From Eledone cirrhosa (lineage: Eukaryota): a stretch of DNA of 64,000 bases. Where the stretch lies: contig OZ024743.1 in the NCBI GenBank assembly GCA_964016885.1, positions 71,920,001 to 71,984,000 of the forward strand, in the 5' to 3' direction. Below are positions 7,464-63,500 of this stretch, piece after piece (position 1 is the first letter of the stretch; each line of letters starts with the position of its first letter). A model generated the notes under the pieces. That model searched no databases. It was not told where the DNA came from and saw nothing but the letters and a program-made list of their open reading frames with translations. A program made the translations under genes and the position numbers.

Positions 7464-7739
7464 TAGTAATAATAATAATAATAATAATGCTTTCTTTATT
7501 AACCACAAGGGTTTACATAAAGTAGACATTAAGGACAGTACAGGACAATACAGGACGGTACAAATGGGCATTTCTGCGTGTAAAAAAAAACAAAAACAGG
7601 ATGTAACAAAAAATAGCAATGAAAAATTCCCCAATAGAGGGGAGACTTCCGAGGGACATTTGTGGAGAAAGCCCATTAAAAGGCCACAGTGACCCTGACC
7701 ACCAGGGCAAGTGCCCTCTTCCAGTTTTCCACCTTTAAT

Positions 7740-10700
7740 TTACAGACACATACTCAGAGTAGGCCCATTCACTCGGGCCATTCTTGCCTCTCTCACCCAT
7801 CTTTCAACAAAATGCTGGGAAGAGAGCACTTCCCTCTCTATCCTGATTTGCCTTTTCAAATGAAATTTGAAAAGGTTAATCAGGGCATCACTGAAGAGGT
7901 AAATGCTCGTCTTCAGCCCTTTCAAACATGTCCACCATTCTATCTCTTTCGCCATGGCCACCAGACAGATTAAAAACTGCCTGCCCTTCCCGGCTAATGG
8001 AAGAAGGCGGGGAAATCCTCACGGTGGACTCAGCTGATAGCTGGATCCGTCCTACACGCGACAGCAGGTGTTCGACATAAACCCACAAGTCAGCAATGCT
8101 TGGACACTGGACGAGTGCGTGCAGGACGGTTTCGTCGTCCTGCGCGCATCTCGGACATGCCCGGCTGACGGCAGCTCCATGCCTGTAGATTTTATCCCGA
8201 ACTGGCAAAGATCCTCGGTAGCACTGCCAGGCAAGGGATTTCTGGAAGTTCTCCATAGGCCGCGGCCCGAAAGTTCTTCCAAAGAGATTGGCTAGTTGAT
8301 TTTCGTCGACGCCTAGAATTTCCCCAAGTACGTCGTCGCTCTTCCCCTCCACTAATCCTCTATAGAATGCCAAGGTGGATTTTCTACCGATCACATTGCC
8401 CGAATGGTCGAAGGCTGAGACCGCCTTAAGACATTCCAGTCTCCAAGCGCTGCCTCTCGGTCTTCGCTTGACCCAGGACTGCAACTCCGTCAAGGAGACG
8501 AGCTGAGGAAAGACGCATGTAGCAAACGGCGTCCACACCTGCGCACCGTCAAGGAAGAGGTGAAGATGTCGTAGCCTGAGTGCGTGTCCGCGCATCATCA
8601 GCCACGGCATGCCCAGCCCTCCACGTAGCGGGTGTTGACAACAAATGGACAGCCTGACCATCAGAGCGCGTCACTTCCACAATAGGCGAAAGAGCAAATG
8701 CTCCAGCGCAGTCAGGCGGGACTTAGGACAAGGTACGACGATCAGGAGAGAAGCCACCCTGCTCGTCACCTCGTCCCAGTTTTTGTCCGTCTGGAGGGTC
8801 CGGACCGAAACAGACCCCTAGCAATTTAACCGGTCCGTTCTTCCAGCGCCCGACGACGCTGTTGGACGGCATGGACCTGCCTCTCCATGTGTCGAGCTGC
8901 AGGCCCACTGACTTTTCCTGGTTGATCATTGCTCCTGTCACCGCTTCGTATTCGCATATTGTAGTGCCGATCGCCTCGATGTGTTTGGCGTTCGACACCA
9001 CTACGGTGACATCGTCCGCATATGCTGACACGGATCTTCCGCATCCTAGTTCGCGCGCGACGCCCCTCAACGTCTCCAGTTTGTGCAGTAATGGCTCGAG
9101 AGTCAATACATACAAGAGGGACGAGAGGGGACATCTTTGGCGGACCGAGCGCATGATGTTGAACGGTTCCGAAAGGTGATCGTCCACTCTCACCACAGAG
9201 CAGATGTCGCTGTGCATGGCAGCGATCCACCCTCTGAAGACGGGCCCAAAGCCACCCGCCTTCAGGACGGTAGCTAGTTTACGATGGTCGACCCTATCGA
9301 AAGCTTTCGACAGATCTAAATTGATCAAGAACCCACCCGTGCCAGGTTTCCTAGCTACCCTCTCTACGATGTATCGCATGAGGTGGAGGTTGTAGTGGAT
9401 GGATCTGTCGGGAATGGCGCATGCATGCGCCTCTCCCACCAGACCACCAACGACAAGCGCCGACCTGTTTGCTAGCACCTTGCCCAAAATCTTGAACTCT
9501 GTGTTTAGCAGAGTTATGAGCCTGAAATTATCTATGTTACCCCCCTTGTTCGGATCTTTTCTCAGCAGCGCCACCGCTCCTCGGCTCACAGAGCTGGGAA
9601 TTCTCCCGTTCTGTTGCCAGTTGCAGTAGACGTCCGCCAAGAGGCCTCCGAACAAGTCTGGCATGTGTACGTAAAGTTCATAGGGCAGACCATCCAAACC
9701 AGGGGATTTACCCCTTGTGCAGCCAGTCATTGCCTCCCGTACTTCAGCCGCTGTTATCGGCTTTTCGCAACACTCCGCCTCAGTGGCCGAAAGCCGCGGC
9801 AATCCCTCGAGGTAGACACTGAAGTCCATCCCTCGACCCGGCCCACCGCTCGCCCCGAACAGCTGAGCCAAGTGTCGTTGAAAAGATTCACACATTTGCT
9901 CGGGATCGAGTAGCATGCGCCCGTGGGGGTCCACCAAAGACCGGTTGCTTTGTTGCCACGACGCCCCCCCCCCACTCGGGCCCATTGAACGGCTTTCGTC
10001 CCCTCGTGTCTGAGAACATGCACCCTAGCTCTGACAACGCAGTCTTCGTGTTTTGCATTGAAGAATTGGTCAAGGGCAAATTTCGCCGCAAGTACGTCGG
10101 TCGTGATGCCTTTGCTAAGCATCTCGCCTAATTTTCTAACTATTTCTCTCTCTGCTCTATTTTTCTCTTTTGCTAAAGCCTTACTAAACCTAATGGACTT
10201 TATTCGAATCGCTCTTTTCAGAGCAAACCACCACTTGCTGTTGACGATGACCCCCCGTCAACGCCCGCTTAACTAGTTCGCTAATCCAGTCTCTGTAGGC
10301 CTTGCGCGTTGGTAAGGAAGCGTTTAGCTTCCAGTAGCCGGGTCCTCGTTTATGAAGCCTATCTAAGTCAAGCACACAGATCACGAATTTGTGGTCCTTG
10401 TAGCTGACTATCTTGAATTGTGGACAGCCTATGCTAGACCTATCTATTTCCCTACAAAATACTCTATCTAGATATGATCGGGATGACCCGAAGCGTTTTG
10501 TCCAAGTCCACATTGGCACATTCGGGATATCCAATCGGTACCTGTCAGACAGTTCAAAACCCCTGAGCAGGTTGGTGAGGCTCTTGCAACCTCCTCCCCT
10601 ATCCGCTAATCCCACACACTCCCAGCGTGCATCTAAGATCCAGTTCCAGTCGCCCACTAACACTAAAGAGCGGGACGTTCCAAGAAAGGTCTAGACGGGC

Positions 10701-14224: not shown

Positions 14225-17200
14225 AAAACCCCGTGACCAAGAAATACCGGGATGGCGGCCGGCGGGGGAATAGCCGTGTCTCTAGGGGAGAACGACCCCT
14301 CTAGTCTTGGTTGACACTCGTTCTAGAAGTGGTAACACGAAATGATTACCCCTTGGCGGATAAGGATAAAACGCGACAAAATAAAGTTAATGTCTAATGA
14401 TAAAATCTCATTCCGGATCGGCCGTCACCCGGGTAAAAAAGGGCCGCGTCCCTCAGAGAGGAACCAGACTGGGGTCGAAAAATCAGCTAATGGTTCAAAC
14501 CTTCCCATCACTTCGGAGCTGGAGACCTCCCATAACCGGAATACTCCTACTGTTGGCCCTCCATGTTCACCACCAAGAAATCCAAAGAAAAAGAGAGAAA
14601 AATGCTCAAAGGAAGATAATAAAGAAGTCCTTGAGGCTTTCTACACTGCCATGTACTACCCATCAAATACATCGAATACAGAACAGACATATATCAACTG
14701 GAAAAAGAAACATCCCGAAAACAGAGGCTATATTGACAGTAACAAACTAGCCAATATAAGAAGAAATATTGTAAGAAAAAAGTTACTAACTGATATAGAA
14801 ATTGATCAGATCAAGCTATTAGCACAAAGCCAGCGAAGGGAAAATGAAACATCTGTCAGTGAAAACGAGGTAAATTGTAACACTTCGAATCCCAGGGTTG
14901 GGGCGGAATCACCGGCAACAGAACAAATTAAAGAAAGGATCGAAAAAGTGGAGGGAGTGCATGCTCAAGATGAAAATCCAAATGAAAATAATGAGATCGT
15001 AAATAATAAAGAAATGAATGAGAATGAACTTGCCAACTTGAAGGATGAAATTATGATCGAATGGATGAAAATGAAAGAATCTGACATGGGGCAACGAGAC
15101 ACCCTCCCTAAGATCCAGAACTCCAAACAGAACCAAAAGATAATACACAAGACTAACATAATTCTCAAAAACATTATTATCACAAACAAACTAAACATTA
15201 CTGATTTAAATCATCTCTATTATGCATCGGCTTAAGTCACCACTCACTTATGTGGAGTGAAGATGAAAAAATAAAGGAATTCCCACAAGAAATCTACTTG
15301 GCAAGAGAACATCAATCGCCAAATAAATCTTCTCCGATCTGACATAGAAATTTTAACAAACTATAAAGTAGGTGAACATGTTAAACAAACTAAACTTAGA
15401 AAATTGAAAAAAAGTACAGTATAAAATCAACAAGTGACATAGACATGCTGATAGAAATAATCAAGCAAAAAGTGTCGGCCAAAGCTGCTCGTATAAGGCG
15501 CTTTGAAAAACGATCTAGATCCTATAAGGACAATAATATGTTCAAAAACAACCAAAGAAACTTCTACAGAAAAATTGGTAAGTCAACAATAACTGCTAAA
15601 TCAATAACACCCAAGGAGGAAGTGCAAGAATTCTGGGAAAAGATCTGGGCCGAAGAAAAAGTTCATAACATACATGCCCCATGGATAGACAGACAAAAGA
15701 AAGATACAGCTCACCTTGAGGAACAAATATGGGAGAATATAACAGTTGAACATTTGCGCTTGGCTCTAAGAAAAACCAGCAAATGGAAATCCCCATGAAA
15801 AGACAAAATACAAAACTTTTGGATAAATGCCTTCACAGAGTCTCATGAGCTGTTAGCAACTTTACAATGAAATAGTTAAGGAGCCAGAAAAGATACCATC
15901 ATGGCTAGTTAACGGCATTACATTCCTGCTTCCGAAGAATGATGAGACAAACAATCCCAAAAATTACAGACCGATAACTTGCTTGACCACAATGTATAAA
16001 ATTTTAACATCAGTCCTAACTGAATACATATATGACCTATTTCCCATTGAGCAGAAAGGGTGTAAACAAGGCTCATATGGCTGTAAGGATCAGCTTTTGG
16101 TTAACAAAATGATACTGGAAGATTATCATAATAGACACAAAAATCTATCAATTGCTTGGATAGATTATAAAAAAGAATTCGATAGTTTGCCACACAGTTG
16201 GATTGAAAAATGTTTAGAGATTTTCAAAATATCCCCCGTTGTCAGGAGGTTTTGGCATTCAGTATGAAGACATGGAAAACGACACTCATTCTGAATAGTG
16301 AAACAAAATCACTGGAAGCTGGAGAAGTTAATATTAATTGTGGAATTTTTCAGGGTGACTCTTTATCACCGCTTTTATTCTGCATCGCACTTATACCATT
16401 AAGTAAAATGCTCAATGAAACAAAACATGGATATAAAGTCTATGAAAAACCATTAATCACTTGTTCTACATGGATGACCTGAAACTATTTGCAAAAAATG
16501 ATGAACAATTGCAAGGGCTATTATCCACTGTGGAGCAGTTCAGCGATGACATTAAAATGGAGTTTGGACTAGATAAATGCGCCAAAGCAACGTTCACCAG
16601 AGGAAAGCGGCTGAAGAGTTCAGACATTAATCTTGATCGGAGGAACGTGATAAGAGAACTTGATCAAGAAAAAATTTACAAATATCTAGGTGTTTGTGAA
16701 GGAGACGGAATCAAGCACTCGACAATGAGGGAAAGGATAAGGAAGGAATGTTACCGCAGAGTAAGAGCAATCTTAAGAACGGAATTGAATGCAAGGAATA
16801 GGATCGATGCCATAAACACGCTTGCCATACCAGTAGTAACCTACAGTTACAATGTCATCAACTGGTCAAGCACAGAGATCCGTAGGCTCGATACAAACAT
16901 TCGAAAATTCTTAACCATGCACAGAATGCATCACCCTAAGGCAGATATAGATAGAATATATCTCCCTAGGAAAGAAGGAGGACGTGGGTTAATCCAGTTA
17001 GACATTGCGTTGAAAACTGCAACAATTGGATTATCTACATATCTAAGGGAATTACATGATTGGATGATCAAACTCGTTTTGGAACACGAAAGCATCAAAA
17101 GATCATATTCCATTACAAAAGATGCACAAAGATACAGTAATAGACTACAAATTTCAGAAGTCCCATTTACTGCTGAAATGGAAAACACAGAAAAAGCAAA

Positions 17201-18172
17201 GCAGGTAACTGCAAAGAAAGAACTGCTAGAGAAACTGGCTAAGAAATGGCAAGAAAAGCCTCTGTATGGAAAATACCCAGAGCGAGCTAACAATCCTGAT
17301 GTTGACAAAACTTTAACCCATCAGTGGTTGGCATCCTCTGGACTGAAATCGGAGACTGAAGGACTGATTATATCAGCACAAGATCAGTGTCTGCCGACAA
17401 AAAAATTACCAAGCCAACATAATAAAAAATGGATGCAGCCCATTATGACGTGTATGCAAAAAACAACCAGAGACCATTGACCATATAATTTCAATGTGCA
17501 GTCCTATAGCTCCAACCGAATACTTAAACAGGCATGACAGATCTGCACAATACATATATTGGATAATGTGTAAGCATTTTGACCTGCCCCATCAAAAGAA
17601 TTGGTGGGAGCATCAACCACCTCCCATACTTGAAAAAGATCACATCTCAATCTTGTGGAACTTTAGCATCCAAACAGACCGAAAAATAGATGCAAATAGA
17701 CCTGATATAATATTGAAGGACTTTAAAAAGAGGGTATGCCTGCTAATTGATATGTCTGTTCCAATAGACAAGAATGTATCTATAAAAACATTTGAAAAAT
17801 TGAGCAAGTATAAGGATCTGGAGATAGAAATTGGAAAAATGTGGAAATTGAGAACTAAAACAATACCAGTGGTTGTAGGCGCTCTGGGAATGATACCTAA
17901 GGGGTCTAATGATTACTTATCGCAAATCCCAGGAAACCCGCGTATAGGAGAAATACAAAAGATAGTACTAATGGGAACTGCCCATATACTAAGGAAGATT
18001 CTGTCAATATAAGTACATCACAAGTCTAAACACTAAAGATGCATGTGTGAGTATGTATGTTCTTTCTTGAACATGGCGGACCTTGTTGTCTCTTGAGGTC
18101 ACTGGTTGTGACTTGGTGATAACTCGTATGAACATAAAGCAAGATAAATGCAACTGTAATAATAATAATAAT
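14225..18172 (+). mobile_element. Near full-length R4/Dong-like RLE LINE, subfamily B, with (AAT)n tail
   Basis: ORF pieces 14342-18012 contain NYRPITCL, DYKKEFD, GIFQGDSLSP, FYMDD, RHD, NRPDIIL..LIDMSVP and EKLSKYKDL; tail TAATAATAAT at ~18157. Confidence 0.92.
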
Positions 18173-21875: not shown

Positions 21876-22062
21876 GTGAATGCGCATGGCTTGCATGGCT
21901 TGCAATCGAAGAGTTGTGAGTTCAATTCTCGGACCGGGTGATGTGTTGTTTCCTTGAGCAAGGAACTTTATTTCACGTTGCTACAGTTTACTCAGCTGTA
22001 GAAATGAGATGACACAAGATACCTCGAATGAGATATACCTCGGAGGAGGCCATCTAAACCTG
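21876..22062 (+). mobile_element. tRNA-derived SINE family 2 (CORE-like body)
   Basis: B box GAGTTCAATTCT and CCTTGAGCAAG..ACTT; paralogues at 54405 and 57745. Confidence 0.8.
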
Positions 22063-28190: not shown

Positions 28191-28253
<63 letters not shown>

Positions 28254-28257
<4 letters not shown>

Positions 28258-28845
28258 GGAAAAAAATGAAACGAAATTTCATTTCTCACTCTTAGTACGG
28301 CTGTTACTTAAATATAAGTATGTATACGTACATACATATATGTATACAGACGTACAGTAATATGTATATATATATATATATACATACATGCACACATATA
28401 TATATATGTACGTATGGATTCACCGAACATTTATTATAATGCTCGGTGTGTTTGTAAACAAACATCCCAAATTAAGCCGTACAGTGTCTAGCAACCATCG
28501 TTGCTAATTTATTCAACACTGACAAAGGAACGCTGTGCTAGTTTCAAGCTTATTAGCTATCCTCAGCAACGTATACCTTCCTGCCAGATGGTTGAACGTC
28601 TGAAAGTATATACTTTCCTTATGAATATTAACGGCTGAGCAGCCTAATTTGCATATCGAGTGAGTTAATCGGCCGGGGTACCGAAAACGATAAACGGAAA
28701 AAATGAAACTAAATTTCATTTCTCACTCTTAGTACGGCTGTTACTTAAGTATAAGTATGTATACGTACATACATATATGTATACAGACGTACAGTAGTAT
28801 GTATATATATACATACATGCACACATATATATATCTACGTACTTA
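28254..28845 (-). mobile_element. HHR repeat family A: ~438-bp unit in partial tandem (retrozyme/pLTR-like)
   Basis: The unit start recurs at 28254 and 28692; HHR at 28531-28571 (U16.1 mutated); octamer at 28647-28654. Confidence 0.85.
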
Positions 28846-28967
28846 TATATATAAGGGCGGTGCCCCAGCATGGCCTCAGCCGGATGGCTGAAACAGGTAA
28901 AAGAGTATATATATATAAACAATAAATATGGTATTATAAAAGATATTTTCCATTTATTAATAGTGTT

Positions 28968-33639: not shown

Positions 33640-33711
<72 letters not shown>

Positions 33712-33715
<4 letters not shown>

Positions 33716-34064
33716 GGAATAGAATGAAACGAAATTTCATTTCCCACTCTTAGTACGGCAGTTACAGCCGTTAATATGCATAAGGAAAGTATATACTTTC
33801 AGACGTTCAACCACCTGGTAGGAAGGTATACGATGCTGACGATAGCTAATAAGCTTGAAACTAGTACACCGTTCCTGTGTCAGTGTTGAACAAAAAGGTG
33901 ACGTGGTTGCCTAAACAATGTACGGCGTAATTTGTTTACAAACAAACCGAGCATTATAATAAATGTTCGGTAAACCGATACGTGCATATATAAATGTGTG
34001 CATGTATGTATATATATACATACTACTGTACGTCTGTATACATATATGCATGTACGTATACATA

Positions 34065-34068
<4 letters not shown>
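33712..34068 (+). mobile_element. HHR repeat family A copy with a 5' inverted tail
   Basis: 33712-33764 is inverted, then a forward unit with HHR at 33831-33871 (CTGACGA-TAGCTAATAAGCTT-GAAA-CTAG-TA). Confidence 0.85.
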
Positions 34069-34130
<62 letters not shown>

Positions 34131-37949: not shown

Positions 37950-40900
37950 ATGCTTTCTTTATTAACCACAAGGGTTTACACAAAGTAAGACATTAAGGAC
38001 AATAGAGGACAATACAGGACGGTTCAAATGGGCATTTCTGCGTGTAAAAAAAAGCAAGAACAGAGGATGTAACAAAAAAGAAACAATGACAAATTCCCCA
38101 ATAGGGGGGACATCCGAGGTACATTCGTGGAGAAAGCCCATTAAAAAAGCCACGGTGACCCTGACCACCAGGGCATGTACCCTGTCCCAGTTTTCCACCT
38201 TCAATTCACAGGCACATACACAAAGTAGGCCCATTCACACGGGCCATTCTTGCCTCTCTCACCCATCTTTCAACAAAATGCTGGGAAGAGAGCACTTTCC
38301 TCTCTACCCTGATTTTTTTTTCAAATGAAATTTGAAAAAGTTAATCAGGGCATCACCAAAGAGGTAAGTGTTAGTCTTCATCCCTTTCAGACACGTCCAC
38401 CATACTATCTTTTTCGCCATGGCCACCAGCCTGATAAAAACTGCCTTGCCCTTCCCGGCTAAAGGAAGAGGGCGGGGAAATCCTCACGATGGACTCAGCT
38501 GATAGCCGGATCCGTACTACAGGCGGCAGCAGGTGTTCGACATAAACCCATAAGTTAGCAATGATCGGACACTGGACGAGTGCGTGCAGGACGGTTTGGT
38601 CGCCCTGTGCGCATCTCGGACATGCCCGGCTGACGGCACCTGCATGCCTGTGGAGTTTATCCCGAACTGGCAAAGCTCCTCGGTAGCACAGCCAGGTCAG
38701 GGATTTCTGGAACTTGTTCATAGGCCCCGGTCCGAAAGTTCTTCACAAGAGATTGGCTAGTTGATTTTCGTCGGCGTCTAGATTTTCCCCAAGTACGTCA
38801 TCGCTCCTCCCCTCCACTAATCCACTATGCAACGCCAAGCTGGAGTTTCCACCGATCACATTTCCCGACTGGTCGAGGGTTGTGAGCGCCTGAAGACATT
38901 CCAGTCTCCAAACGCTCACTCTCGGTCTTCGCTTGACACAGGACTGCAGCTCCTTCAAGGAGACGAGCTGGGGAAAGACGCGTCTAGCAAACGGCGACCA
39001 CACATGATCAACGTCGAGGAAGAGGTGGAGTTGTCGTAGCTTGAGCACGTGTCTGCGCATCATCAGCCACGGCATGCCGAGCCCTCCACGTAGCGGGTGT
39101 TGCCAACAGATGGACCGCCTGACCATTGTAGCGCGTCCCTTCCATAAAAAGCGAGAGAGCAAACGCTCCAGCGCAGTCAGGCGAGGCTTAGGACAAGCCA
39201 CGACGGTCAGGAGTTAGTAGATCACTTACTCGATGTACGAATTCGCCACCTCCGCTCGACCTTTGAGGGATAGTTTCCTGTCTGCCCATTTATGGGTAAG
39301 AGAAGCCACCCTCTCGTCACCTCGTCCCAGATTTTGTCCGTCTGGAGGTCCGGACCGAACCAAACCTCTAGCAATTTAACCGGTTCGTCCGTCTAGCGTC
39401 CGACGACGCTGTTTGATGGCATGGACCTACCTCTCCACGTGCCGAGCTGCAGGCCCACCGACTTTTCCTGTTGTTCATTGCTCCTGTCACCGCTTCGTAT
39501 TCTCTTAGTGTAGTGCCGATCGCCTCGATGTGTTTGGCTTTCGGCACCACTACGGTGACAACGTCCGCATATGCTGACACGGATCTCTCGCATCCCAGTT
39601 CGTGCGAGACCCTCCTCGAGCTAGGCACTAGTCCATTCTTCGATCCGGCCCACCGCTGCCCCCGAACAGCTGTGCGAAGTGTCGCTGAAAAGATTCACAC
39701 AGTTGCCCGGGATCGAGTAGCATGCGCTGTCGTGGTCCACCAAAGACCGTATCGTGGATTTGTTGCCATAGTGCGCCTCTTCCACTCGGGCCCATTGAAC
39801 GGCTTTCGTCCCCTAGTGTCTGAGCACACACCCTAGCTTCGACAACGCAGCCTACGTGCTTTGCATTGAAGAATTGGTCAAGGGCCAATTTCGCCGCAAG
39901 TACATCGGTAGCGATGCCTTTACTAAGCGCCTCGCCTAATTTTCTAACTATTTCTCCCTCTTCTCTATTTTTCTCTATTGCTAAAGCCTTATTAAACCTA
40001 ATGGACTCTATTCTAATTGCTCTTTTCAGAGTAAACCACCATTTGTTTTTGACGATGGCCCCCGTCAACGCCCGCCTACCTAATTCACTAATCCGGTCTC
40101 TGTAGGCCTTGCGCGCTATTAATGAGCGTTTAGCTTCCAGTAGCCGGGTCCCTGTCTACGAGGCCTATCTAAGTTAACCTCATAGATCACGAATTAGTGG
40201 TCCGTGTAGTCGACTATTTTTAAATGTGGACAGCCTATGCTAGAGCTATCTATTTCCCTACAAAATACCCTATCTAGATATGATCTGGATGACCCGATAC
40301 GGTTTGTCCATGTCCACATTGGCACATTCGGGAAATACAGACGGTAGCTGTCAGACGGTTGATACTATCTGAGCAGGTTTGTGAAGCTTTTATACCTTCC
40401 TCCTCTATCCGCTAATCCCACTCAGTTCCAGCGTGCATCTAAGATCGCGTTCCAGTCGCCCACTATCACTAAAGAGCAGGACGTTCGAAGTAAGGTCTCC
40501 AGACGCCGGAAGAAATCAAGCCACCCTGCTCCTGTCGGGGCATAGACGGTCACAAGCCTGAAAGCTTGCCCTTCTCCGCTGGTCACGTCCAGTACCACCA
40601 ACTTACCTTGTGGGTCCAGGAAGATGGCCCGTATGGCGAGATCCAAACCTCTCCGAAAAAGCACAGCAACTCATCGCCCCGATCCAGGACGGCTGGTAGA
40701 TGTGCACACATCGTAGCCGCCGAAGATCGGTGCGAAGGTTCGTGCTTCGGAGATTCTGGTCTCGCTTATGGCCACCACATCTATGTTTAGTGACCTGAAG
40801 TCGTTGAGCAGCTGGCCCTGCTTCCATGACGACCCCATGCCACGCGTATTTATGCTGCCTATTCTGAGTGAGGTAATGTTGAAAAGGAGTGGAAAAAGAT

Positions 40901-43236
40901 GGGAAAGACCACTTATCTCACTTCTCGTAGAGAAAGGTTGGTTTATCCATCCTTCTCACTGCTTGTGGCATCCTCCTCAAGGATGTCCTTATGAATCCTC
41001 CTGGAGGGTGTTTGTCGGAAGTCTCCGATGTCCTTGGGGAATATTTGTTTTAGTGTCATGTACGTTTTCTGTGTGATGCGAGTGATTTGTATGTGGGAAG
41101 GTGGGGTGAATTTTGGGGGTGTTGTGTAGTCTTTTTCTGTGATGCTGGTGTTTTGTTGGATGTAGTGTAATAATAGGTTGTTCAAATTTAATTGTTTCTA
41201 CTTTAGGCACAAGGCTAGCAAATACCCAGTGCATTACTGGTAGTTTATTTCATCGACCCCGTAAGGATGATAGGCAAAGTCAACCTCGGCGGGATTTGAA
41301 CTCAGATCGTTCAAATTTAATGCTGTGAAGTGTGTATAGTTTTGGTTGTTTTATTTGGTTTGCGTTTGTTGTGGGTTTGTTCCTGTTTGTTTCGCTTTTT
41401 GGTGATTTTTGTGGTGTTGGTGATGTTGGTTTTGGGGTTAATGATGGTGATGATGATGGTGTTGGTGTCTGTGGTGATGGCGCTGGTGATACTGGTGTGG
41501 GTGGTGGCATAGCTATCGTAACTTTTTTGTTTGTATGCTTATTTGTTTACCCTGATTTTGTTTTTGGTGGGCGAAGGAAGAGATTTTTTTCTTTTTTGGG
41601 TTCTTTTTTTTTCTTTTTTCCTGATACCATTTCCCACTCCTCTTCATCGTCACAATCTGTCTCCAGTTGGGATAGGTCGGGAGTGGAAAATCCTCCACTG
41701 GCGTTGGTTTTGGTTGTGGCGTGGTGGATGGTGGAGGCGCTGGTGCTAATTCTGGCGTGATGGGTGGTGGTGGTGGTGGTTTTGCTACTGTTGCTGCTAC
41801 AATTGCTCGGGTTGGAGCCACTACTGTTGCTTCTGTTGTTGCTGCCATTTCTGCTGCTGGTTTTCATGGTTCAGTCACTGGGGTGGGTAGAAGTGGGGCC
41901 TCAACTTTTTAGCTCGAGCGCAGAAAACATTTAGGTGGGTTCCTTCGCCAGAAATGACACACCTAGGCCTTCTACCTTCAACAATTACGGTTAGGTGGCT
42001 GCCATCATTGAGGTCTATTACCTCTGGAATTTCCTCTATGTTTTTTTGGTCTGTTTGGATCAGGAGCTCCATCCCAGATCCGGACCTGTTCGCCAGCTTA
42101 CTTTTGTTACCTCAATTACTTTAGTGTTGTCCTCGATGTCGGCGAGGACACAGCCATCAGCCAGGGAATTTCAGTGGCCGGTGGAACGTGGGTCACCCTG
42201 ATCTTCACGAGACTCTGACCACAATAGCTTGGGACAGTTTGAACTCGTCACTTCTTAATGGGGCCATGGAGTGCTCCCTGGCTCCCGGTGGGCTTCCAAA
42301 GAACACGTCCACGGTTGCATATTTCTGCTCACGTCTGATGTGGGTCTTTTGCGCCCACACATGTCCTAAAGCTTTTTGAATCTGGGACTCGGATGCCCGT
42401 TCCACTCGGCGTAATTTTATGTTTATCGTCCGATATGTCACGGTGCATAGGCGCCGATGTCCCATTTTTCGAGGGGGGGGGGGGTGACCCTGTACTCATC
42501 TTTTTTTACCATTCGCTCGGCTTCATTCAATTCATCCTGGCTTACCGCGATTATTACGCTTTTCTTGGCTGCTTTGGCAAACGTCACATTTTCTTTTGCG
42601 CTGGTGTTCATGTTGTCATTGTTATTCTTGTTGTTGTTGCTGTTGTTATTGTTTTTGTTATTGTTATTTTTACTTTCAGTTGTGATGGTGGTGGTTTCAG
42701 TGGTGTTAGGCGTGGAAGAGTCGATTCTGGGTGAATCCATTTCGATGTCACCAGATAATAATTTATTTTTGTTTCTGTTGTCACGGTGGTGGTGGTGGTG
42801 ATGGTGGTATCAGTGGTATTGGTTGTTCTTTTTGACATTGTGGTGGTGGGGATGGCGGCTTTAACACCTGCAGTTATTGGTAATGGCGAGAAATCCATGT
42901 CTGTATGTGACAAATTTAAATAATTGCCATTGCTATTACTTATATTTTCAGTGTTGGCAGCCGTAGCAAGGTTTACAATGGTTGTGGTAGATGTTAGGTT
43001 GCCAGCTTTGTGTTGCTGAATGACGTCTTTTTTTTTTACAAAGAAATTTTAGTTAGATAAATATAAAAGTTAAAATGTTTGGCCTCATGGCCCCAATATG
43101 TCCTTTTCAGAAAGCAATATATATGAACTTATAAACACTTAACAACAAAAGATTTCCATAATTGGCAATTTGAAGCAACTGAAAGAAACAAACCTTTGTG
43201 GAGCTCACGATAATACAATTTCCTACGTAGGTCGCC
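37950..43236 (-). mobile_element. Tx1-like L1 LINE (same subfamily as 7489-13192) with intact ends and an RT-internal deletion near 39620
   Basis: Same 3' end (AATAAAGAAAGC-ATT) and 5' end (GGCGACCTA) beside (AAT)n; GGPDRRMD is joined almost directly to ELGCERSVSAYAD. Confidence 0.92.
41193..41308 (-). mobile_element. 5'-truncated SINE family 1 (Meta-domain-like) inserted in Tx1 ORF1 with a 13-bp TSD
   Basis: TSD GTTCAAATTTAAT at 41180-41192 and 41309-41321; B box GAGTTCAAATCC. Confidence 0.88.
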
Positions 43237-43261
43237 AATAATGATAATAATAATAATAATA

Positions 43262-46200
43262 ATGGGTTCTTTATTGGCCACAAGGACTAATACTAAGAAA
43301 AACTTTAGAGACGGCATAGAACAGTACAGGACGATACAAAATCGGTTTTGGTCGTGTAAACAGGTTATAACAAAATCGGGCTAGAAATAAAAAGAATTCA
43401 AACAACAAAAATTCCCCAAGAAGGGGGAAACCTCCGAGGGTCACTCGGGGTGAAAACCACACAAAAGACCACGGCCACCCTGACCACCAGTCTACAGGCG
43501 CATACTCAGAGCGGGCCCGTTCACTCGGACCAGACTCACCACTTTCATCCACCTTTCAACAAACTTACTAGAAGACAACACTTGCCTCTCCACCCTGATT
43601 TTCCTCTTCAACTGAAACTTGAAAGAGTTAATCAGGGATTGGCCGGAGAGGAAAGTGTCCGTCTTCAACCCTTTCAACCTTGTCCACCACACAATCTCTT
43701 TCGCCGTGGCAACCAGGCAGATGCAAACAGCCTGCCCTTCCTCCTCTTTAAAGGAGGGTGGCGGGGCTATCTGCACAATGGACTCAGTCGATAACCGGAT
43801 CTGTCCTACACGCAACAGCAGCTGTTCGACATAGCTCAACAACTCAGCAATCCTCGGGAACTGAACGAGTGCGTGCAGGACGGTTTTGTCGCCCTACGCG
43901 CATCTCGGACAGGTTGGATGATAGCACCTCCGTGCCCGTAGAGCTTATTCCGAATCGGCAACGCTTCCAAGTAGCACTGCCAGGCCAGGGATTTCTGGGA
44001 GTTTTCCATAGGCCCCGGTCTGCAAGTTCTCTTGAAGAGAGCGAACAGCTGATCGTCTCCGACGCCCAGGTTCTCTCCGAGAACGTCGTCGATCTTTCCT
44101 TCCATTAGCCCTCTATAGAACGCCGAGGTGGATGTTCCACCGATACCAGTGCCCAGCTGGTAGAGGGCAGTGAGCGCTTGGAGACATTCCAGCTGCCAAG
44201 CGCTATCCCTCGGTCTTTTTCCAGGACTGCAGCTCCGCCAAGGAGACGAGCTGAGGAAAAGTGCATCTGACAAACGGTGACCCCACCTGTTCACCGTCAA
44301 GGAAGCACCATAGATATCGCAGCTCCAGCGCATGTTTGCGCATCATCAGCAACGGCATGCCTACTCCTCCACGCAACGGGTGTTGACAGCAAATGGATTG
44401 TCTGACCATGGGAGCAATTCCCTTCCACAAAAAGCGGAAGAGAAGGCGCTCCATTTTCGTCAGAGTTGGGCAGGGCAAGGTACTATCGTCAGTCGGTAGC
44501 AGATGACGGACGCTATGTACGCATTTGCCACCTCCGCCCGACCTTTCCGAGACAGCCTCCCATCGGCCCAGTTCTGGGTGAGAGAGGCCACCCTGCTCGT
44601 CAGCTTGCTCCAGATGTTCTCCATCTGGAGGTCCAGACCGAACCAGACCCCGAGCAATTTAACCGGTCCTTCTGTCCAGCGACCCACGACGTTGGACGGA
44701 AGGACCAGGTGCCGAGTTCCTGGTTTATCTTTGCTCCTGTCACCGCTTCGTAGTCCTTGAGACCAGTGCCGAGCATCTGGACGTTTTTGGTGCTCGACAC
44801 CACCGCGGTGACGTCGTCGGTGTAAGCTGACACGGATCTCCAGCATTCAAGTTCGCGTGGGACCCCCCCCTCATCGTCTCCAATTTGTGCAATAACGGCT
44901 CTAGGTCCATTACGTACAAGAGGGATGAGAAAGGGCAACCCTGGCGGACCGAGCGCATGATGTTGAAAGGCTGCGACAGGTAACCATTCACCCTCACGAT
45001 CGAGCAGATGTCGCTGTGCATCGCAGCGATGCAGCCCCTAAAAACGGGCCCAAAGCCGGCCGCCTCGGGGACCGCAGCCAGGTACAGATGGTCGACCCTA
45101 TCAAATGCTTTAGATTGACCAAGTTGATCAAGGCTCCACCCGTGCCAGGTTCCTTAACCACCCTCTCTATGATGTATCGCATGAGATGGAGGTTGTCGTG
45201 GATGAATCTATCCAGAATGGCACATGTCTGCGCCTCTCCCACCAGATCACCGACGACAAGCGCCAATATATTTACTAACACCTTGGCCAAAATCTTAAAC
45301 TCTGCGTTTAGCAGAGTTATGGGAAACTCTGCGTTTAGCAGAGTTATGGGCCTGAAGTTGTCTATAACGTCCCCCTTGTTCGGGTCTTTTCTCAGCAGCA
45401 CCACCGCTTCCCAGCTCACAAAACTGGGAAAGATCCCGTTCTGCTGCCAGTTCCAGTAGACACCTGCTAAGAGGTCGCAGAACAAGTCTGGTATATACGC
45501 ATAAAGCTCGTTGGGCAGACCATCCAAGCCTGGCGATTTACCCATCGTGCAGTCAGACATCGATTCCCGTATTTCACCTGCTGTTATCGGCTTTTCGCAG
45601 CACTGCGCTGCGGTCATCGAGAGCCGTGGCAGTCCGTCGAGGCATGTATCGAAGTCCACACTTCGATCCGGCCCGCTGCTGCTCCCGAATAAGTAAGCAA
45701 AGTGCTGTTGAAAAGCCGCACACATCTGCTCGGGTTCAAGCAACATGCGCCCGTTTTGATCAGGAAAAGACCGAATAGAGGACTTGTTGCAACGTCGGTT
45801 GCGATGCCTGTCCTAAACACCTCTTCTAGCTTTCTAACTAACTCCCCCCCTCTACTCTATTTTCTTCTATCACTACTCCTTTGATTAACCTTATCGACTC
45901 TATTTCAATAGCACTTTTCGCACCCGTCAACGCACGCTTAACTAATTCGCTAATCCGGTCTCTGTAAGCTTTGCGCGCCGGGAACGACGCGTTCAGCTTC
46001 CAGTAGCCGGGCCCTTGGCTATGGAGTCTATATAATTCAACTTCACAAATCACAAATTTGTGGTCCGTGTAGTTGAGTACTTTAAACTGTGGACAACCTA
46101 CACTAGCCTTATCTGTTTCCATACAGAATACCCTATCTAAATACGATCTGGATGACCCGATGCGGTTTGCCCATTTCCACATTGGCACATTCAGATAATC

Positions 46201-47631
46201 CAGTCTATACCTGTCAGACAGTTCAAAATGTCTGAGCAGGTTGTTGAGGCTTTTACACCCTCTGTCCTGTCTACTATCCCCACATAATCCCAGCGTGTAT
46301 CTAAGATACCGTTCCAGTCGCCCACTAACACTAAAGAGCAGGACGTTCCAAGAAAGGTCTCTAGATGTCTGAAGAAAACTGGCCGTCCAGCCCCTGTTGG
46401 GGCGTAGACGGCTACTAGCCTAAGAACATTGACTTCGCTGCCGGTCACGTCCAGCATTACCGACTTACCTTCTGGGTGCAGGAAGTTGGCCCGTATGGCG
46501 AAATCCAAGCATCTCCTAAAAAGCACGGCAATCCCTCCCCCCGATCCTGGACGGCTGGGAGATGCGTATACATCGTAGCCCGCGAAGATCGAAGTGAAGG
46601 CTCATGCTTCGGAGATTCTAGTCTCGCTGATGGCCACCACATCTATGTTTAGTGACCTGAGGTCGTTGATCAGGTGACTCTGCTTCCAAGATGGCCCCAG
46701 GCCACGTAAGTCTACTGTAGCGTACTTTTTGCCTCGGGTGATGTGGGTTTTGCGCGCCCAGATGTACCCCAAGGCCTTTTGGATTGTGAGCCTACGTGGC
46801 TCTCTCCACCCAATGTGACATCTTGCTTACGGTTCGGTAAGTCACCGTGCGCAGCCGCTGGTCTTTGAAGAAATCGGTTGGAGTTTCAGGGAAACTCTAT
46901 TTTCATTCCTTATCACCATGGCTCTTGTGACTGCCATCTCCTCCTCCGTGACTAGCACTGTCTCTTTATTTCGGGCCACACCTGCGAAAGAAGTGGCCCC
47001 TTTTTCAGCGGCACCATTATTGCTGCCTCTACTGCTCTTGTTGTTGGTGATGTTGTTGTTGCTACTGCTACAAACGATGTTGTTGGTGTTGTTGCTCTTA
47101 TCACTGTTGTAGTTGGTTGTGTTTTTGGTGCCACTGTTGTTGTTTTCGGTGCAATTTGTATTGTTGCTGTTGGTGTTGCCGTTGTTTATTTTCTTGTTAG
47201 TGGTGTTAATATCGTTGTTGCATTTGTTGTCATTTTTTTTGTTGTCTGTATTTTTGTTGACGCTGTTATTGTTATAGTTGGACATTTTTTTTATATTAGT
47301 GTTCTCAGTGTTGTTGTCTTTGTTCACGTTGTTGTTTGAATTTCACTAACCTTCGTCTCAACTTTTACGTCACTGTCACACGACAGCAGACATATTGCTG
47401 GGGGGCGTGGCTCAGCCATGTTTTTTTTTTTTTAATTTTCAAAAGTAAAATGTTCAAATATTGTTCAAATATTTGGGCCAAAAGGTCCAAATATTATAAT
47501 TTCCCCTTCACAGGGCAAAGTCCAGGGGCTTATATCCTTTACACAAAAAGAAAAATTTAACGAACAAATAATTATAATAGGTAAATAAAGCGACTTACTG
47601 GGAGCGATCAAAAAAGACGTCCGAACAGACC
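43262..47631 (-). mobile_element. Tx1-like L1 LINE, another subfamily, with a deletion fusing early ORF1 to the ORF2 start (~46708)
   Basis: APE/RT pieces 43492-46700; Asn-rich ORF1 N-terminus 46842-47327; (AAT)n on both sides. Confidence 0.9.
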
Positions 47632-58889: not shown

Positions 58890-59832
58890 GCATATGTGTG
58901 TGTGTATATATATGTGTGTATGTGTGTGCATGAAGAAGCACACAATGATAAATGGATACATGTATTCTACAGCAACTCGTGTCTTCTCCAAAAGCAGTAA
59001 ATTATATATACTTCAATGGGGTATAATTCCCTATTGTCAAGACAAAAGGTAAATTTTTAATAATATAGAATAAAATGGTAGCTTTCTTGAAGATATTGCT
59101 ATCAATAAATGTATATAAGAATTTCAATCAGAAGAAATAGCTGGACAACAGACAATATTTATCGTGTAAACTGACCATTATGCAATAACGCTAACTTTTA
59201 GTGAATATATCTCTCTTACATTTACCCTTTCCATATAATTAACGTAAGAAATGGAAAATAATTGCTGAAGAAAATATCACCTATTCCAGGCGAATTTTAG
59301 AATACCAATAATATGTATATTATGTAAGACAGCTGTCATTGTATATTATATATCAAACATAGTTGGATGCAATAGCTCATAATCTACGTATCAAAAGATT
59401 TGTTTAGTAACAGACAGTCGTATATGTCTCGGTTCTACAACTTTCAGAAGGAGATTCAGAATAAAAGCATTACAGATAAATATATTTTAACAGCCTGAAG
59501 AAATATTATCCAAACATTCTACTGTTGCACAGACTCTTTAAATGGTTATTTATTTTCACATATGTTCAAGTCACCGAGGGTGACGCATCTTAATAGCACT
59601 CTGTTTCCATTTTTACACACATGCAACACTCTTAATATATATATATATATACGGAAAAAATAAAACGAAATTTCATTTCTCACTCTTAGTACGGCTGTTA
59701 CTTAAATAACAAATGAGCAACGATCGTTGCTAGACACTGTACGGCTTAATACGGGATGCTTGTTTACAAACACACCGAGCATTATAAAAAATGTTCGGTG
59801 AATCCATACGTACATATATATATGTGTGCATG

Positions 59833-59925
<93 letters not shown>

Positions 59926-60067
59926 TACTGTACATCTGTATACATATATGTATGTACGTATACATACTTATATTTAAGTAACAGCCGTACTAAGAGGGAG
60001 AAATGAAATTTCGTTTCATTTTTTCCGTTTATCGTTTTCGGTACCCCGGCCGATTAACTCACTCGAT

Positions 60068-60075
60068 ATGCAAAT
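60068..60075 (+). promoter_or_regulatory. Octamer ATGCAAAT 80 nt upstream of the HHR core
   Basis: Exact octamer, also present in the 28.6-kb copy; function is inferred. Confidence 0.4.
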
Positions 60076-60150
60076 TAGGCTGCTCAGCCGTTAATATGCA
60101 TAAGGAAAGTATATACTTTCAGACGTTCAACCATCTGGCAGGAAGGTATA

Positions 60151-60191
60151 CGTTGCTGACGATAGCTAATAAGCTTGAAACTAGTACAGCG
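60151..60191 (+). ncRNA. Minimal HHR with intact core (family A)
   Basis: CGTTG-CTGACGA-T-AGCT-AATA-AGCT-T-GAAA-CTAG-TA-CAGCG. Confidence 0.87.
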
Positions 60192-60397
60192 TTCCTTTGT
60201 CAGTGTTGAACAAATGAGCAACGATGGTTGCTAGACACTGTACCGCTTAATTCGGGATGTTTGTTTACAAACACACCGAGCATTATAATAAATGTTCGGT
60301 GAATCCATACGTACATATATATATGTGTGCATGTATGTATATATATATATACATACTACTGTACGTCTGTATACATATATGTTTGTACGTATACATA

Positions 60398-60458
<61 letters not shown>

Positions 60459-60461
<3 letters not shown>

Positions 60462-60900
60462 GATAAATCTACCAAGAGTTTACGGTAGTGTCCAATCCGT
60501 ATGAAGAACTCAATGTAATCCGGATATCATGGAAAGAAGAGATGCATTCAAAAATCACTTTCGGTGAAAGATAAACGGAATACAGAGTCAAGATAAAATA
60601 TTAAAAAAATAATGAATAAAACAATGAAACAGTTCCTTATATTAAACAAAAAAAGTTCATTATTTAACGATCGTTTCTAGGACATATATGTGTTAGATTA
60701 TTTCTGAAGACGGCATATATATGTGTTGGTATGTATATTAAATTTGATAGTTTGTATAATTTTGTATAATTTTGTACATAGATCTGTTGAATATGCATGC
60801 CAATTCTAACACATATATGTCCTAGAAACGATCGTTAAATAATCAACTTTTTTTGTTTAATATAAGGAACTGTTTCATTGTTTTATTCATTATTTTTTTA

Positions 60901-60910
<10 letters not shown>
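60459..60910. mobile_element. Fold-back PLE-like element (arms 60593-60697 / 60805-60910) with left extension
   Basis: Reverse-complement arms with (TA)n on both sides. Confidence 0.87.
60698..60842 (+). ncRNA. HHR with a 114-nt stem II domain
   Basis: TTATTT-CTGAAGA-[long hairpin]-GAAAC-GATC-GTT-AAATAA. Confidence 0.75.
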
Positions 60911-60956
<46 letters not shown>

Positions 60957-60964
60957 TATATATA

Positions 60965-61470
60965 TCTGTTGAGAGCTTAATTCGTTTTGTGATGTTTTGA
61001 ATTCTTGCAATAATATACACATACTGAATTCATCCGCGTAAAATAAGGGTTGTCTCCCTTACCGAGCCCCACGTGGGGTCGGTAACGGTCATTCCTTAAA
61101 TTTTATCACTCGAACTAAAACCTGTTGAAAAAGTGGCTTCCTTGTTCAATCATCTTACCAGAAGCCTAACATTATTTGTGTAAGCAGACAGTACTTGATT
61201 TAGGAGTCGCAGAAACCCAAATGCAGGATGTTACCAACCATCCAGGGGTCCGGGTAAATTTTTTCAATCACATATATTTGTATTTGTTTGACTCGAATTA
61301 CCTGGTCGTTTTTATGGCTGTGCGGATGATTGTTTAACCATCGTCTCAGTGTGTTTGGCCTTTAAAGTATGTTGTAGCTCTGGTTCATCTGAATCATTGA
61401 GCGCTTGCCAGACATCTCGGAAGTTGTTTTTCGTTAATTCCTAAGCCGAAATACGATTCTCGCTAATTTA
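60965..61470. repeat. Dispersed repeat family C, copy 2
   Basis: Collinear with 56657-57158. Confidence 0.88.
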
Positions 61471-61486
61471 TATCTATCTATCTATC

Positions 61487-61558
<72 letters not shown>

Positions 61559-62456
61559 GATAGATATATATATATATACACATGTGTGTGTGTGTGTGTG
61601 TGTGCGTTACGGGGTTTAACACACGAAGAAATATAGTTTAGATTATTAGCCACCATGTGAGAAATTAGATAAATGTAAATGAAGTATTGCTTCCTTCGTT
61701 CACAGCTTATTTACTGTTCTTCAGAAGAAACACCTCGTTTTATGTCCACGTCGAGAAGTAATGCTAATAGTTATTTCTATTAAACGGAAACCAGGACGCT
61801 GCTGAAATGGTGCCACAGGATGTTTTGCAGAAATGCCTATCATTAAATTAATCACACCCAGTCAGAATGTTTGATATGCAACATTAGAATTGCTCTTTGA
61901 GAAAGAGCAATTCATGTAATAATCTATGGGCTAAACAGACTGACCAACCCGCAATTGGTAAGCATGCTGAGTAAGGCTACATTACTGACATGAGTAAAAC
62001 TAAAATGAAAGCGATTGAGGTTTTTGTATTTGTTTAGCACGATTTTTTAAAAATCTGAAAACGTGTTTTGATACAGATATTGTTGTACTTTGGGAGAGTC
62101 ATGCTGCCAATAAAATAAATACACACGCACCTGTTGGATTTCACTTTAATTTACTCTTATAATTTTCCGCATGGTTAGTATAAAACCGGATGGTTGTTTA
62201 TTTGTTTATTGTCAAAGTAGTTTCGTCGCACATTCTGTGAGCTCTACAGTGATTACGTTTGTTGTTAGATTGTCTCTCCTTTGATCTGTTCTACTTCATC
62301 TTGTTTTGTTAGCAGTATGACCCTCCCAATGAATATCAATGTCGATACACAAAACGCCACCACCAACAGTTTTGCAAGAGATTTTATTTTTATCTAAAGA
62401 CATTTCTTCCAATTCCATCCCGCTCATCCCCTCAATCTATCTTATTTCTCATCTTT

Positions 62457-62492
62457 TCTTCTGATGAAGGAGTAGCGTCCGAAACGTTAAGA
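62457..62492 (+). ncRNA. Minimal HHR in a PLE-type pLTR remnant
   Basis: TCTT-CTGATGA-A-GGA-GTAGCG-TCC-GAAA-CG-TT-AAGA; palindromic AACGTT. Confidence 0.85.
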
Positions 62493-62616
62493 CCCTCTTC
62501 CTGCTATATCAAGCGTTAACCTAATATATCCCTTCCATATACTGTACCGATTGTGTTGTTATTTCTGTTTACCCTTTACATATACTGTATATATATATAT
62601 AGAGAGAGAGATATAT

Positions 62617-63463
62617 AAATGTAATCTGAGTTTTTCGAATATTAATAATAACATTCGATTCGTTTGCAATGTTGCAAACAAGCCTCAATTTTATAGCCAT
62701 TTCAGTAGAATTAACCCTTCATTCTTGCTCTTGTGTTGGCATGTAAACAGAACTACAGACACTAATGTTTCTGGGTATCATCAGTACAGCTCACTGTTTA
62801 CCTGCCAAACTGTCAGAGCTAGTGAAAATATCTGCTATTTTCAAAAATACACAGTGACTGATCGGCCTGATTTGCATATTAGCAGACTGGCTGATCAGTC
62901 AGATCTGCATATCAGCAGACTCGCCAGTCAGTTTCCTGTATACGAGCGATAACTGGCCGACTTTGCCAAATTCAAATAAAAAAAAAAAGAAAATGTTCGC
63001 TCTACATGGCTGAATACAATAAATGTAATCTCAGTTTTCCGAATATTAATAATTGTTTCTACTTTTCGCACAAGGCCAGCAATAACATTCGATTCGTTTG
63101 CAATTTTGCAAACAAGCCTGAATTTTATAGCCATGTCAGTAGAATGAACCCTTCATTCTTGCTCTTGTGTTGGCATGCGAACAGAACTGTATTTTTGAAA
63201 ATAACATATATTTTCACTAGCTCTGACAGTTTGGCAGGTGAACAGTGAGCTGTATTGATGAAGGGTGATACCCAGAAACATTAGTGCCTGCAGTTCTGTT
63301 CACATGCCGAAACAAGAGGAAGAATGAAGGGTTCATTCTACTAACATGGCTCTAAAATTGAGGCTTGTTTGCAAAATTGCAAGCGAATCGAATGTTATTA
63401 TTAATATTCGAAAAACTCAGATTACATTTATTGTACTCAGCCATGTAGAGCGAACATTTTCTT
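62617..63463. mobile_element. HHR repeat family B: ~404-bp unit, partial tandem on the - strand plus an inverted + strand copy
   Basis: AAATGTAATCT recurs at 62617 and 63021; inversion at ~63190; HHRs at 62750-62792 (-) and 63247-63296 (+); octamer at 62870-62877; ~30-bp SINE tail inserted at ~63051-63080. Confidence 0.87.

Positions 63464-63500
<37 letters not shown>

Follow-up and report, generated by a model that had tools for sequence, protein, structure and literature searches.

Hammerhead ribozyme repeats of Eledone cirrhosa that carry a candidate U6-type promoter

Hammerhead elements in the window

The window analysed here is a stretch of 64,000 bp from Eledone cirrhosa (contig OZ024743.1, positions 71,920,001 to 71,984,000), taken from a (TA)n-rich genome of 3.0 Gb. 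It contains members of two families of repeats, A and B, whose units each carry one type I hammerhead ribozyme, as located by structure scan. Upstream of the ribozyme lies a 12-bp word, TATGCAAATNAG, followed by a TATA box; the same combination forms the upstream signature of the host genes for U6, U6atac and RNase MRP RNA. Judged from their sequences, the elements are probably retrozymes with a promoter of their own, and the version in which this promoter is of the U6 type, with RNA polymerase III (Pol III) reading it, is the one that the evidence moderately favours. Standard annotation is silent on them in the window: Rfam at its gathering score reported nothing, and Tandem Repeats Finder did not report the A or B units.

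The 12-bp word contains an octamer, ATGCAAAT, which is present at 60068-60075 (+), 62870-62877 (-) and 28647-28654 (-). Downstream of the first two octamers, at distances of 80 and 85 nt, lie the CUGANGA cores of 60156 (+) and 62784 (-), just as an earlier, sequence-only reading of this DNA had reported. By itself the octamer occurs in the window at chance level (7 times vs 5.52 expected; at least 7 in 29 of 100 shuffles). In the genome, TATGCAAATNAG followed 55-85 nt later by CTGANGA is found at 21,914 sites, compared with 3 for a reversed-pattern control. The first 100 word-plus-core matches listed comprise 86 of A type, 13 of B type and 1 other. The A and B units have a GC content of 0.35-0.39, and their longest ATG frame has 50-116 codons.

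Thirty loci were fetched for each family. Family A forms an array of ~35 units together with many dispersed copies of one to two units, and a 19-unit array of A type is also present; its subfamilies A2 (470-490 bp) and E (466 bp) are clear homologues of the type in the window, A1. Family B is nearly always 1-1.4 units long, and 4 dimers were found. All 11 core positions of the hammerhead are intact in 59 of 77 A copies and in 41 of 60 B copies, and the stems contain compensatory changes between A and E.

Coordinates of the copies in the window are collected in Table 1. The sequence-only reading had described tandem hammerhead units at both loci; at the A locus, however, a single hammerhead is accompanied by part of an upstream unit, and the B locus consists of two opposed arms of a single insertion. 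For family A the description fits elsewhere in the genome, where true arrays exist. The A unit measures ~431 bp (425-440), not 438 bp, and the cut site placed after 60186 is upheld. Stem I of this hammerhead reaches outward to ~60132/60205, and the host spacing would predict a transcription start at ~60140-60145. At the further A copy noted at 28647 the octamer is confirmed and the cleavage triplet is changed.

The B unit measures 404-405 bp, in agreement with the ~404 bp proposed before. The long arm of the B insertion starts 2-3 nt past the cut site of the previous unit, crosses the T-run and the promoter, and ends near the next T-run. Its TATA at 62832 is altered to GATA, and the family's cut position falls between 62758 and 62757. 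Both B hammerheads in the window are defective and mutually inverted. The one in the short arm (63255-63288) has core changes at C3 and U16.1, and the cut that had been predicted after 63288 is not a live site. Single-strand folding is significant for the B short arm only (z -5.3; A -1.1). A second octamer-like word had been noticed near the first in both families: that of A is not conserved (A2 has TTTTCATAA there), and that of B proves to be the promoter word itself, repeated within a 33-bp tandem repeat. Two B stretches, at 62627-62640 (-) and 63410-63425 (+), ~45 nt before the T-run, resemble the 3' box of host small nuclear RNA (snRNA) genes; they are not at insertion ends and may be due to chance. 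A B subfamily with a tRNA-type short interspersed element (SINE) in its body has spread with the SINE; ~9 loci share the junction (L197:1280-2060; window 63053-63081).

The upstream word in host small-RNA genes

For the host comparison, upstream regions were examined for 26 of 48 U6, 8 of 15 U6atac, 14 of 42 U1 and 14 of 48 U2 matches and for the single RNase MRP match. Five genes define the U6-type signature: two solo U6 genes (the best matches), the U6 array, the best U6atac match and the only MRP match. All five have the word in the form TATG(C/G)(A/T)AAT(T/G)AG, at -77, -78, -79, -78 and -78, and a TATA box at -30. Within the U6 array the word was seen in 5 of the 10 loci examined; the remaining 5 have a promoter displaced by an insertion. 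This insertion (L070, L071, L073-L075) is ~180 bp long, lies between promoter and gene, and resembles the tRNA-type SINE borne by B. The word is absent from that place in all 14 other U6 loci and in 7 of the 8 U6atac loci examined, and from their sequences these loci look like retrocopies. Several of the retrocopies (L088-L101, L135-L141) lie in (TA)n or are fused at their 3' side to other repeats.

Host U1 and U2 promoters are built differently: a TATA-like box at -30 is preceded by TCA(G/A)T, between -56 and -58, and by RATTA near -90. None of the 8 distinct U1/U2 promoters tabulated contains the word, although the octamer does occur near -400, in reverse, at two U1 loci. On this comparison the word is a proximal mark of the U6, U6atac and RNase MRP genes in this host. 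The suggestion that the octamer is an snRNA-type promoter element is borne out as far as the class of promoter goes; a role as distal Oct enhancer of a U1/U2-like promoter, as in the newt, is not supported.

The elements bear the U6-type word including its flanking T and AG, and then TATA. Eleven of the 12 word positions are invariant across A1, A2, E, B and one further locus, which makes the word the sole long invariant run besides the catalytic core. Across 1.25 Mb examined, with 138 hammerheads in 15 clusters, the word precedes 42 of 53 A/E hammerheads and 30 of 34 B hammerheads (A and B having been fetched partly by promoter queries) and none of the 51 hammerheads in 13 other clusters. In B it has been duplicated or triplicated. 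A further locus (L125:1501-1700; G000:C1:10118961) has a longer-stem hammerhead behind the promoter word and TATA, followed by a T-run, and is not tandem. The 100 matches listed contain a single case of it; it may be an old member of the family or else a ribozyme gene of the host that Pol III transcribes.

Table 1. Features of the family A and family B insertions in the window
Position	Strand	Feature	Basis
28240..28853	-	A, second insertion: contains octamer 28647-28654 and an altered cleavage triplet	
33698..34128	+	A, third insertion: inverted 3' end and direct arm beginning just past the octamer	
59647..59708	-	A: inverted element 3' end, left arm; adjoins (TA)n on its left	self-BLAST
59708..60032	+	A: partial upstream unit, beginning 22 nt past the hammerhead cut position; expanded internal (TA)n	
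60017-60032	+	A: U-rich 3' junction motif within the partial upstream unit	
60067..60078	+	A: 12-bp upstream word TATGCAAATTAG, identical to the host U6/U6atac/MRP word at -77..-79	
60084..60088	+	A: TCAGC, 26 nt before TATA; host U1/U2 site of TCA(G/A)T	
60110..60115	+	A: TATA box	
60150..60192	+	A: minimal type I hammerhead, intact, whose stem III is palindromic; cut predicted after 60186	
60187..60403	+	A: body past the cut site, closing at internal CTTAT/(AT)n junction	
62615..63188	-	B long arm: T-run, promoter, hammerhead, body; end TTTAT/(AT)n	alignment to natural copy
62750..62792	-	B: hammerhead, 7-nt stem II deletion at core 62784; inactive as it stands	
62867..62878	-	B: 12-bp upstream word TATGCAAATCAG, then TCAGT at 62861-62857	
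62900..62911	-	B: second promoter-word copy, in 33-bp tandem repeat	
62978..62993	-	B: T4-C-Tn run separating units; resembles a Pol III terminator; B insertions usually end here	
63053..63081	-	B: ~30-nt tRNA-type SINE remnant inside the upstream unit	
63188..63464	+	B short arm, inverted: from just upstream of TATA through hammerhead to T-run and (AT)n	

Insertion ends and templates

The 3' end of A and B copies is fixed, lying at a U-rich site with (AT)n next to it, and an inverted arm is frequent. The (TA)n targets, inverted arms, fixed 3' ends and partial tandems are marks of Penelope-type insertion. The 5' ends bear on the nature of the template. Fourteen of 116 B 5' ends fall within 12 nt at the ribozyme cut site (3.4 expected, p=1.5e-5); 3 lie just before and 7 just after. 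None of 82 A 5' ends lies in the 33 nt before the cut site. The ends do not map a start site: 4 of 82 A ends lie 64-76 nt past the word, and in B 2 of 116 lie at 79-81, numbers that are too low and too scattered. Dimeric B copies, with two start regions, have only 4 exact matches genome-wide, and in 2 of the 4 the upstream hammerhead is deleted; thus, cutting by the ribozyme appears to limit the length of the B template. An enrichment of core mutations in copies that cross the hammerhead was not seen in B (0.061 vs 0.057) or in A (0.024 vs 0.052).

A second line of evidence comes from an A2 insertion 55 kb to the right (G000:C4:72039650-72048700), which has 19 hammerheads and ends of the reverse-transcriptase (RT) type on both sides. 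Two haplotypes alternate over all 17 units compared, the inverted arm included, and one unit deviates at one of the five haplotype sites. Rolling-circle copying of a dimeric circle would explain this alternation; duplication of a dimer at the DNA level is possible, and in the long array on C1 diverged units do form a 7-unit higher-order repeat. Both the pile-up of B 5' ends and the alternation in A2 are what templates cut by the ribozyme and circular templates would be expected to leave in the DNA.

Origin of the two families

The sequence-only reading took A and B to be unrelated families that had converged on transcription from an Oct/POU enhancer. The units have no BLAST match to each other; in addition, neither B against E (shuffled sequences reached the score of three B copies 180, 20 and 264 times in 300) nor the promoter stretch beyond the word, when A and B are compared, beats shuffles. 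However, A1, A2, E and B are colinear, with word, TCAG, TATA, TGGCAG, hammerhead and a downstream block in the same order and at the same spacing. Moreover, the score of the B body against A1 is reached by only 4, 0 and 1 of 300 shuffles for the three B copies, and against A2, more weakly, by 28, 2 and 22. By these measures A and B are probably distant relatives, and convergence is most improbable.

A different origin would make A and B fragments of the pseudo-long terminal repeats (pLTRs) of autonomous Penelope-like elements (PLEs) that were not found here; no PLE match lies within the window. It is indeed typical of pLTRs to have (TA)n targets, inverted arms and a minimal hammerhead whose stem III is palindromic (PMC8557442, PMC6765202), and a 2026 preprint derives animal retrozymes from pLTRs (bioRxiv 10.64898/2026.07.22.740005; Li, Clavereau and Pollet 2026). 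Against this, a same-strand PLE open reading frame (ORF) within 1.3 kb upstream was found for only 1 of 53 A/E hammerheads and 0 of 34 B hammerheads (1 of 87 together, and that one a fusion inside the endonuclease domain), compared with 4 of 4 in the one true pLTR cluster and 0 of 47 others. The arrays of ~35 and 19 units are free of ORFs, and the two autonomous families examined, which encode RT and GIY-YIG domains and both end at (AT)n, have other pLTRs without the word. The linkage counts agree with the retrozyme-like, non-coding nature first proposed, and the units are not merely pLTRs always attached to ORF-bearing PLEs. A pLTR-fragment origin is accordingly very improbable, and by a definition at the level of sequence A and B are non-LTR retrozymes, not pLTRs of ORF-bearing elements; a remote descent from a pLTR may still lie behind them.

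A and B are likely to be non-autonomous passengers of PLEs. One A copy is fused to an autonomous PLE inside its endonuclease domain, at a short microhomology; this single case suggests a template switch and a candidate partner. That this PLE has A as its pLTR is excluded by 24 other copies of that PLE. The family of this PLE shares its last 7 bases with A1, and L267:1821-2480 represents a PLE family with this ending whose pLTR has a variant, hammerhead-like core, CCGAAGA. A near-complete PLE (L256:4702-8640) contains an RT, a C-terminal GIY-YIG domain, an Asn-rich N-terminal part and a hammerhead pLTR, and an E array is inserted in its 3' (TA)n.

Which polymerase

Several observations point to Pol III. 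Among the host promoters compared, the word is confined to Pol III genes. E and a solo hammerhead locus keep the word and TATA without TCAG. Runs of four T are rare within the bodies (8 of 84, 2 of 22 and 2 of 25 copies), a weak point because the three families are not independent. B insertions end inside their conserved T-run: at most 4 T remain at 12 of 20 terminal junctions, vs 1 of 13 uninterrupted internal runs (p=0.004). A T-run as universal terminator was considered, and is weakened by A variants that have no T4. A tRNA-type SINE promoter, with internal A and B boxes, was also considered and set aside: a sense-strand B box is absent from all four types (A1, A2, E, B), and one A-box-like word lies in the B spacer.

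Other observations weigh against it. A1 matches the host U1/U2 geometry exactly (RATTA at -88, TCAG at -56, TATA at -30). The T-run of A is not conserved, some variants have no T4 before the junction, and A junctions lie 5-8 nt beyond the run; E has a T5 inside its body. Read-through is frequent: 3' motifs of A are internal in 76 cases, terminal in 43 and otherwise placed in 6 (arrays included), and those of B are internal in 18, terminal in 20 and otherwise placed in 7, despite three T-runs in the spacer. The word lies 1-6 bp nearer to TATA than in the host genes (43 bp in A, 44 in E, 46 in B and 41 in the solo locus vs 47-49), and such spacing is usually tight in insects (PMC1761439). The host promoter set itself consists of five genes only. 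Within families the octamer is no more conserved than its neighbours, with variation of 0.068 vs 0.088 in A and 0.132 vs 0.131 in B; this is as expected if inserted copies decay neutrally. The test of octamer conservation that the sequence-only reading proposed is thus failed within families but passed between them. Finally, for a mobilising element, the two autonomous pLTRs compared have no homology to A or B beyond the microsatellite, and no word.

Part of this evidence would fit transcription of the same retrozymes by RNA polymerase II (Pol II) from a U1/U2-type core of TCAG and TATA, where the octamer word would act as an activator close by, as is reported for newt satellite 2. Pol II would ignore the T-runs and so yield the multimeric RNA that the cycle needs, and 3' ends would be set by RT priming at UAU/U tracts. 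The U1/U2 positions in A1, the TCAGT at -59 in B, the frequent read-through and the newt precedent (as cited in PMC2220036 and PMC6765202) all agree with this, as do the A junctions, which use TAT microhomology to (AT)n, and the use of alternative internal TTTAT sites. However, B has no RATTA, and E and the solo locus have neither RATTA nor TCAG, yet retain word and TATA; the word is nearby in no host U1/U2 promoter examined; and B ends within its T-run. The A-rich snRNA 3' box of the host, seen after 11 of 11 U1/U2 loci, was not found by eye at the A, B or E junctions. Transcription by Pol II is, on this evidence, possible but rather unlikely. A further alternative treats the promoter as a captured relic: an ancestral element gained a U6-type promoter, present copies owe their transcription to host genes that are read through into them, and the word persists by descent only. 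The unusual word-TATA spacing and the lack of excess conservation within families would suit a relic, and according to a review retrozymes seem to be without promoters of their own and to depend on read-through (PMC7761336). A relic would not readily explain why 11 of 12 positions are unchanged between subfamilies with flanks almost as different as shuffled sequence, or the duplication and triplication of the word in B, and it is improbable. Pol III is thus favoured but unproven; Pol II, or the use of both polymerases, is a serious alternative.

A proposed cycle

Taken as a whole, the data are best explained, with a moderate degree of confidence, if each unit bears a U6-type Pol III promoter that is not part of the RNA started from it. 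From the promoter of unit n, RNA would start 45-55 nt upstream of the cut site. Part of this RNA would stop at the T-run, and part would read through and contain the promoter of unit n+1. Since an RNA that starts downstream of a promoter cannot copy that promoter, the template must include the promoter of the next unit. The hammerheads would then cut, probably as dimers, and a Penelope-type RT/GIY-YIG protein would use a nick in (TA)n to prime copying at the U-rich tract. For B the template would be a linear cut RNA of at most ~575 nt, from the cut site to the next T-run; for A it would be a circle, giving rise to long arrays. Only tandem copies would regenerate promoter-bearing RNA, and single copies would mostly be dead ends. 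Tentatively, the elements may represent a lineage with a gene-external U6-type promoter that is recovered in each cycle by ribozyme-cut read-through RNA carrying the next promoter. Its promoter might be a Pol III/Pol II hybrid, yielding short terminated RNAs as well as the read-through RNAs required for copying, and two modes of replication would coexist in the genome: linear cut templates (B) and rolling-circle copying of a dimeric circle (A2).

Other features of the window

Hammerheads of other kinds lie nearby. A third, unrelated minimal hammerhead with a palindromic stem III and without the octamer is found at 62457-62492 (+), 120 bp to the left of the B insertion, and has two further copies in the neighbouring 200 kb. 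Other hammerhead families without the promoter word are represented at 24536 (+), 53085 (-) and 53400 (+). Among the 13 wordless clusters of the 1.25 Mb, most have no PLE ORF within 1.3 kb. A 317-bp inverted repeat flanked by (TA)n lies between the A and B loci (60593-60909), and broken RT elements of the long interspersed element (LINE) type were recognised by eye from translations at 2998-5744, 6861-10690, 14336-18012 and 38743-46419. Contigs of two of three sequencing runs (other organisms, kind unknown) cover 60066-60320 and not the spacer, at low depth; this has no meaning for expression.

Comparison with known systems

The tandem-promoter logic of the cycle is already known from newt and schistosome precedents. 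Newt satellite 2 is said to have octamer and proximal sequence element (PSE) promoter elements, and the promoter of schistosome SM-alpha repeats is reportedly tRNA-type and internal. Like newt satellite 2, A and B are tandem hammerhead repeats with an snRNA-class promoter; satellite 2 is cited as a Pol II system in PMC2220036 and PMC6765202, whereas the word of A and B is specific to type 3 Pol III genes in the host and lies ~45 bp from TATA. SM-alpha has a Pol III promoter upstream of its hammerhead, as proposed here for A and B, and cutting leaves the promoter in the 3' part of the RNA such that only tandems propagate (PMC6765202); the same logic would hold for A and B. SM-alpha is SINE-like, whereas A, B and E have no sense-strand B box and have a gene-external word of the U6 type.

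Metazoan non-LTR retrozymes resemble A and B in their non-coding, low-GC units of 150-450 bp with one type I hammerhead each, in ranging from monomers to multimers, and in co-occurring with PLEs, on which they have been proposed to depend; A and B fit that proposal and differ by a defined promoter per unit and by minimal, PLE-like hammerheads (PMC7229834, Cervera and de la Pena 2020; bioRxiv 10.64898/2026.07.22.740005). The accessible text of PMC7229834 has the word "promoter" twice, both times for T7, and that of the preprint never has it. With PLE pLTRs, as described by Craig et al. 2021 (PMC8557442), A and B share 5' truncation, partial tandems, inverted arms, microsatellite targets, a hammerhead near the end and an upstream copy that promotes the downstream one; they differ in having no ORF, their own type of promoter and no homology to the two autonomous pLTRs compared. 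With the type 3 Pol III promoters of U6, U6atac and RNase MRP they share the 12-bp word, the TATA box and (in B) a T-run at the 3' end, and differ in the shorter distance from word to TATA and in the added TCAG of host U1/U2 genes in A and B. A literature search that mostly did not reach subscription papers turned up no report of hammerhead repeats with an external promoter of the U6 type, or of the host word; an earlier description is possible, and supplements to retrozyme papers may list these families.

Significance

The 2020 review describes animal retrozymes as seemingly promoterless (PMC7761336); A and B offer a candidate promoter, defined to the base by host small-RNA genes and testable with a few point mutants. 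If the U6-type version is true, a mobile element runs on an external promoter of this kind. The 5' ends and haplotypes would add support at the DNA level for ribozyme-cut and circular RNAs as insertion templates. The comparison also supplies the U6 promoter grammar of this animal, which is useful for the expression of guide RNAs. Finally, ~22,000 promoter-ribozyme units could draw on factors needed by the snRNA genes.

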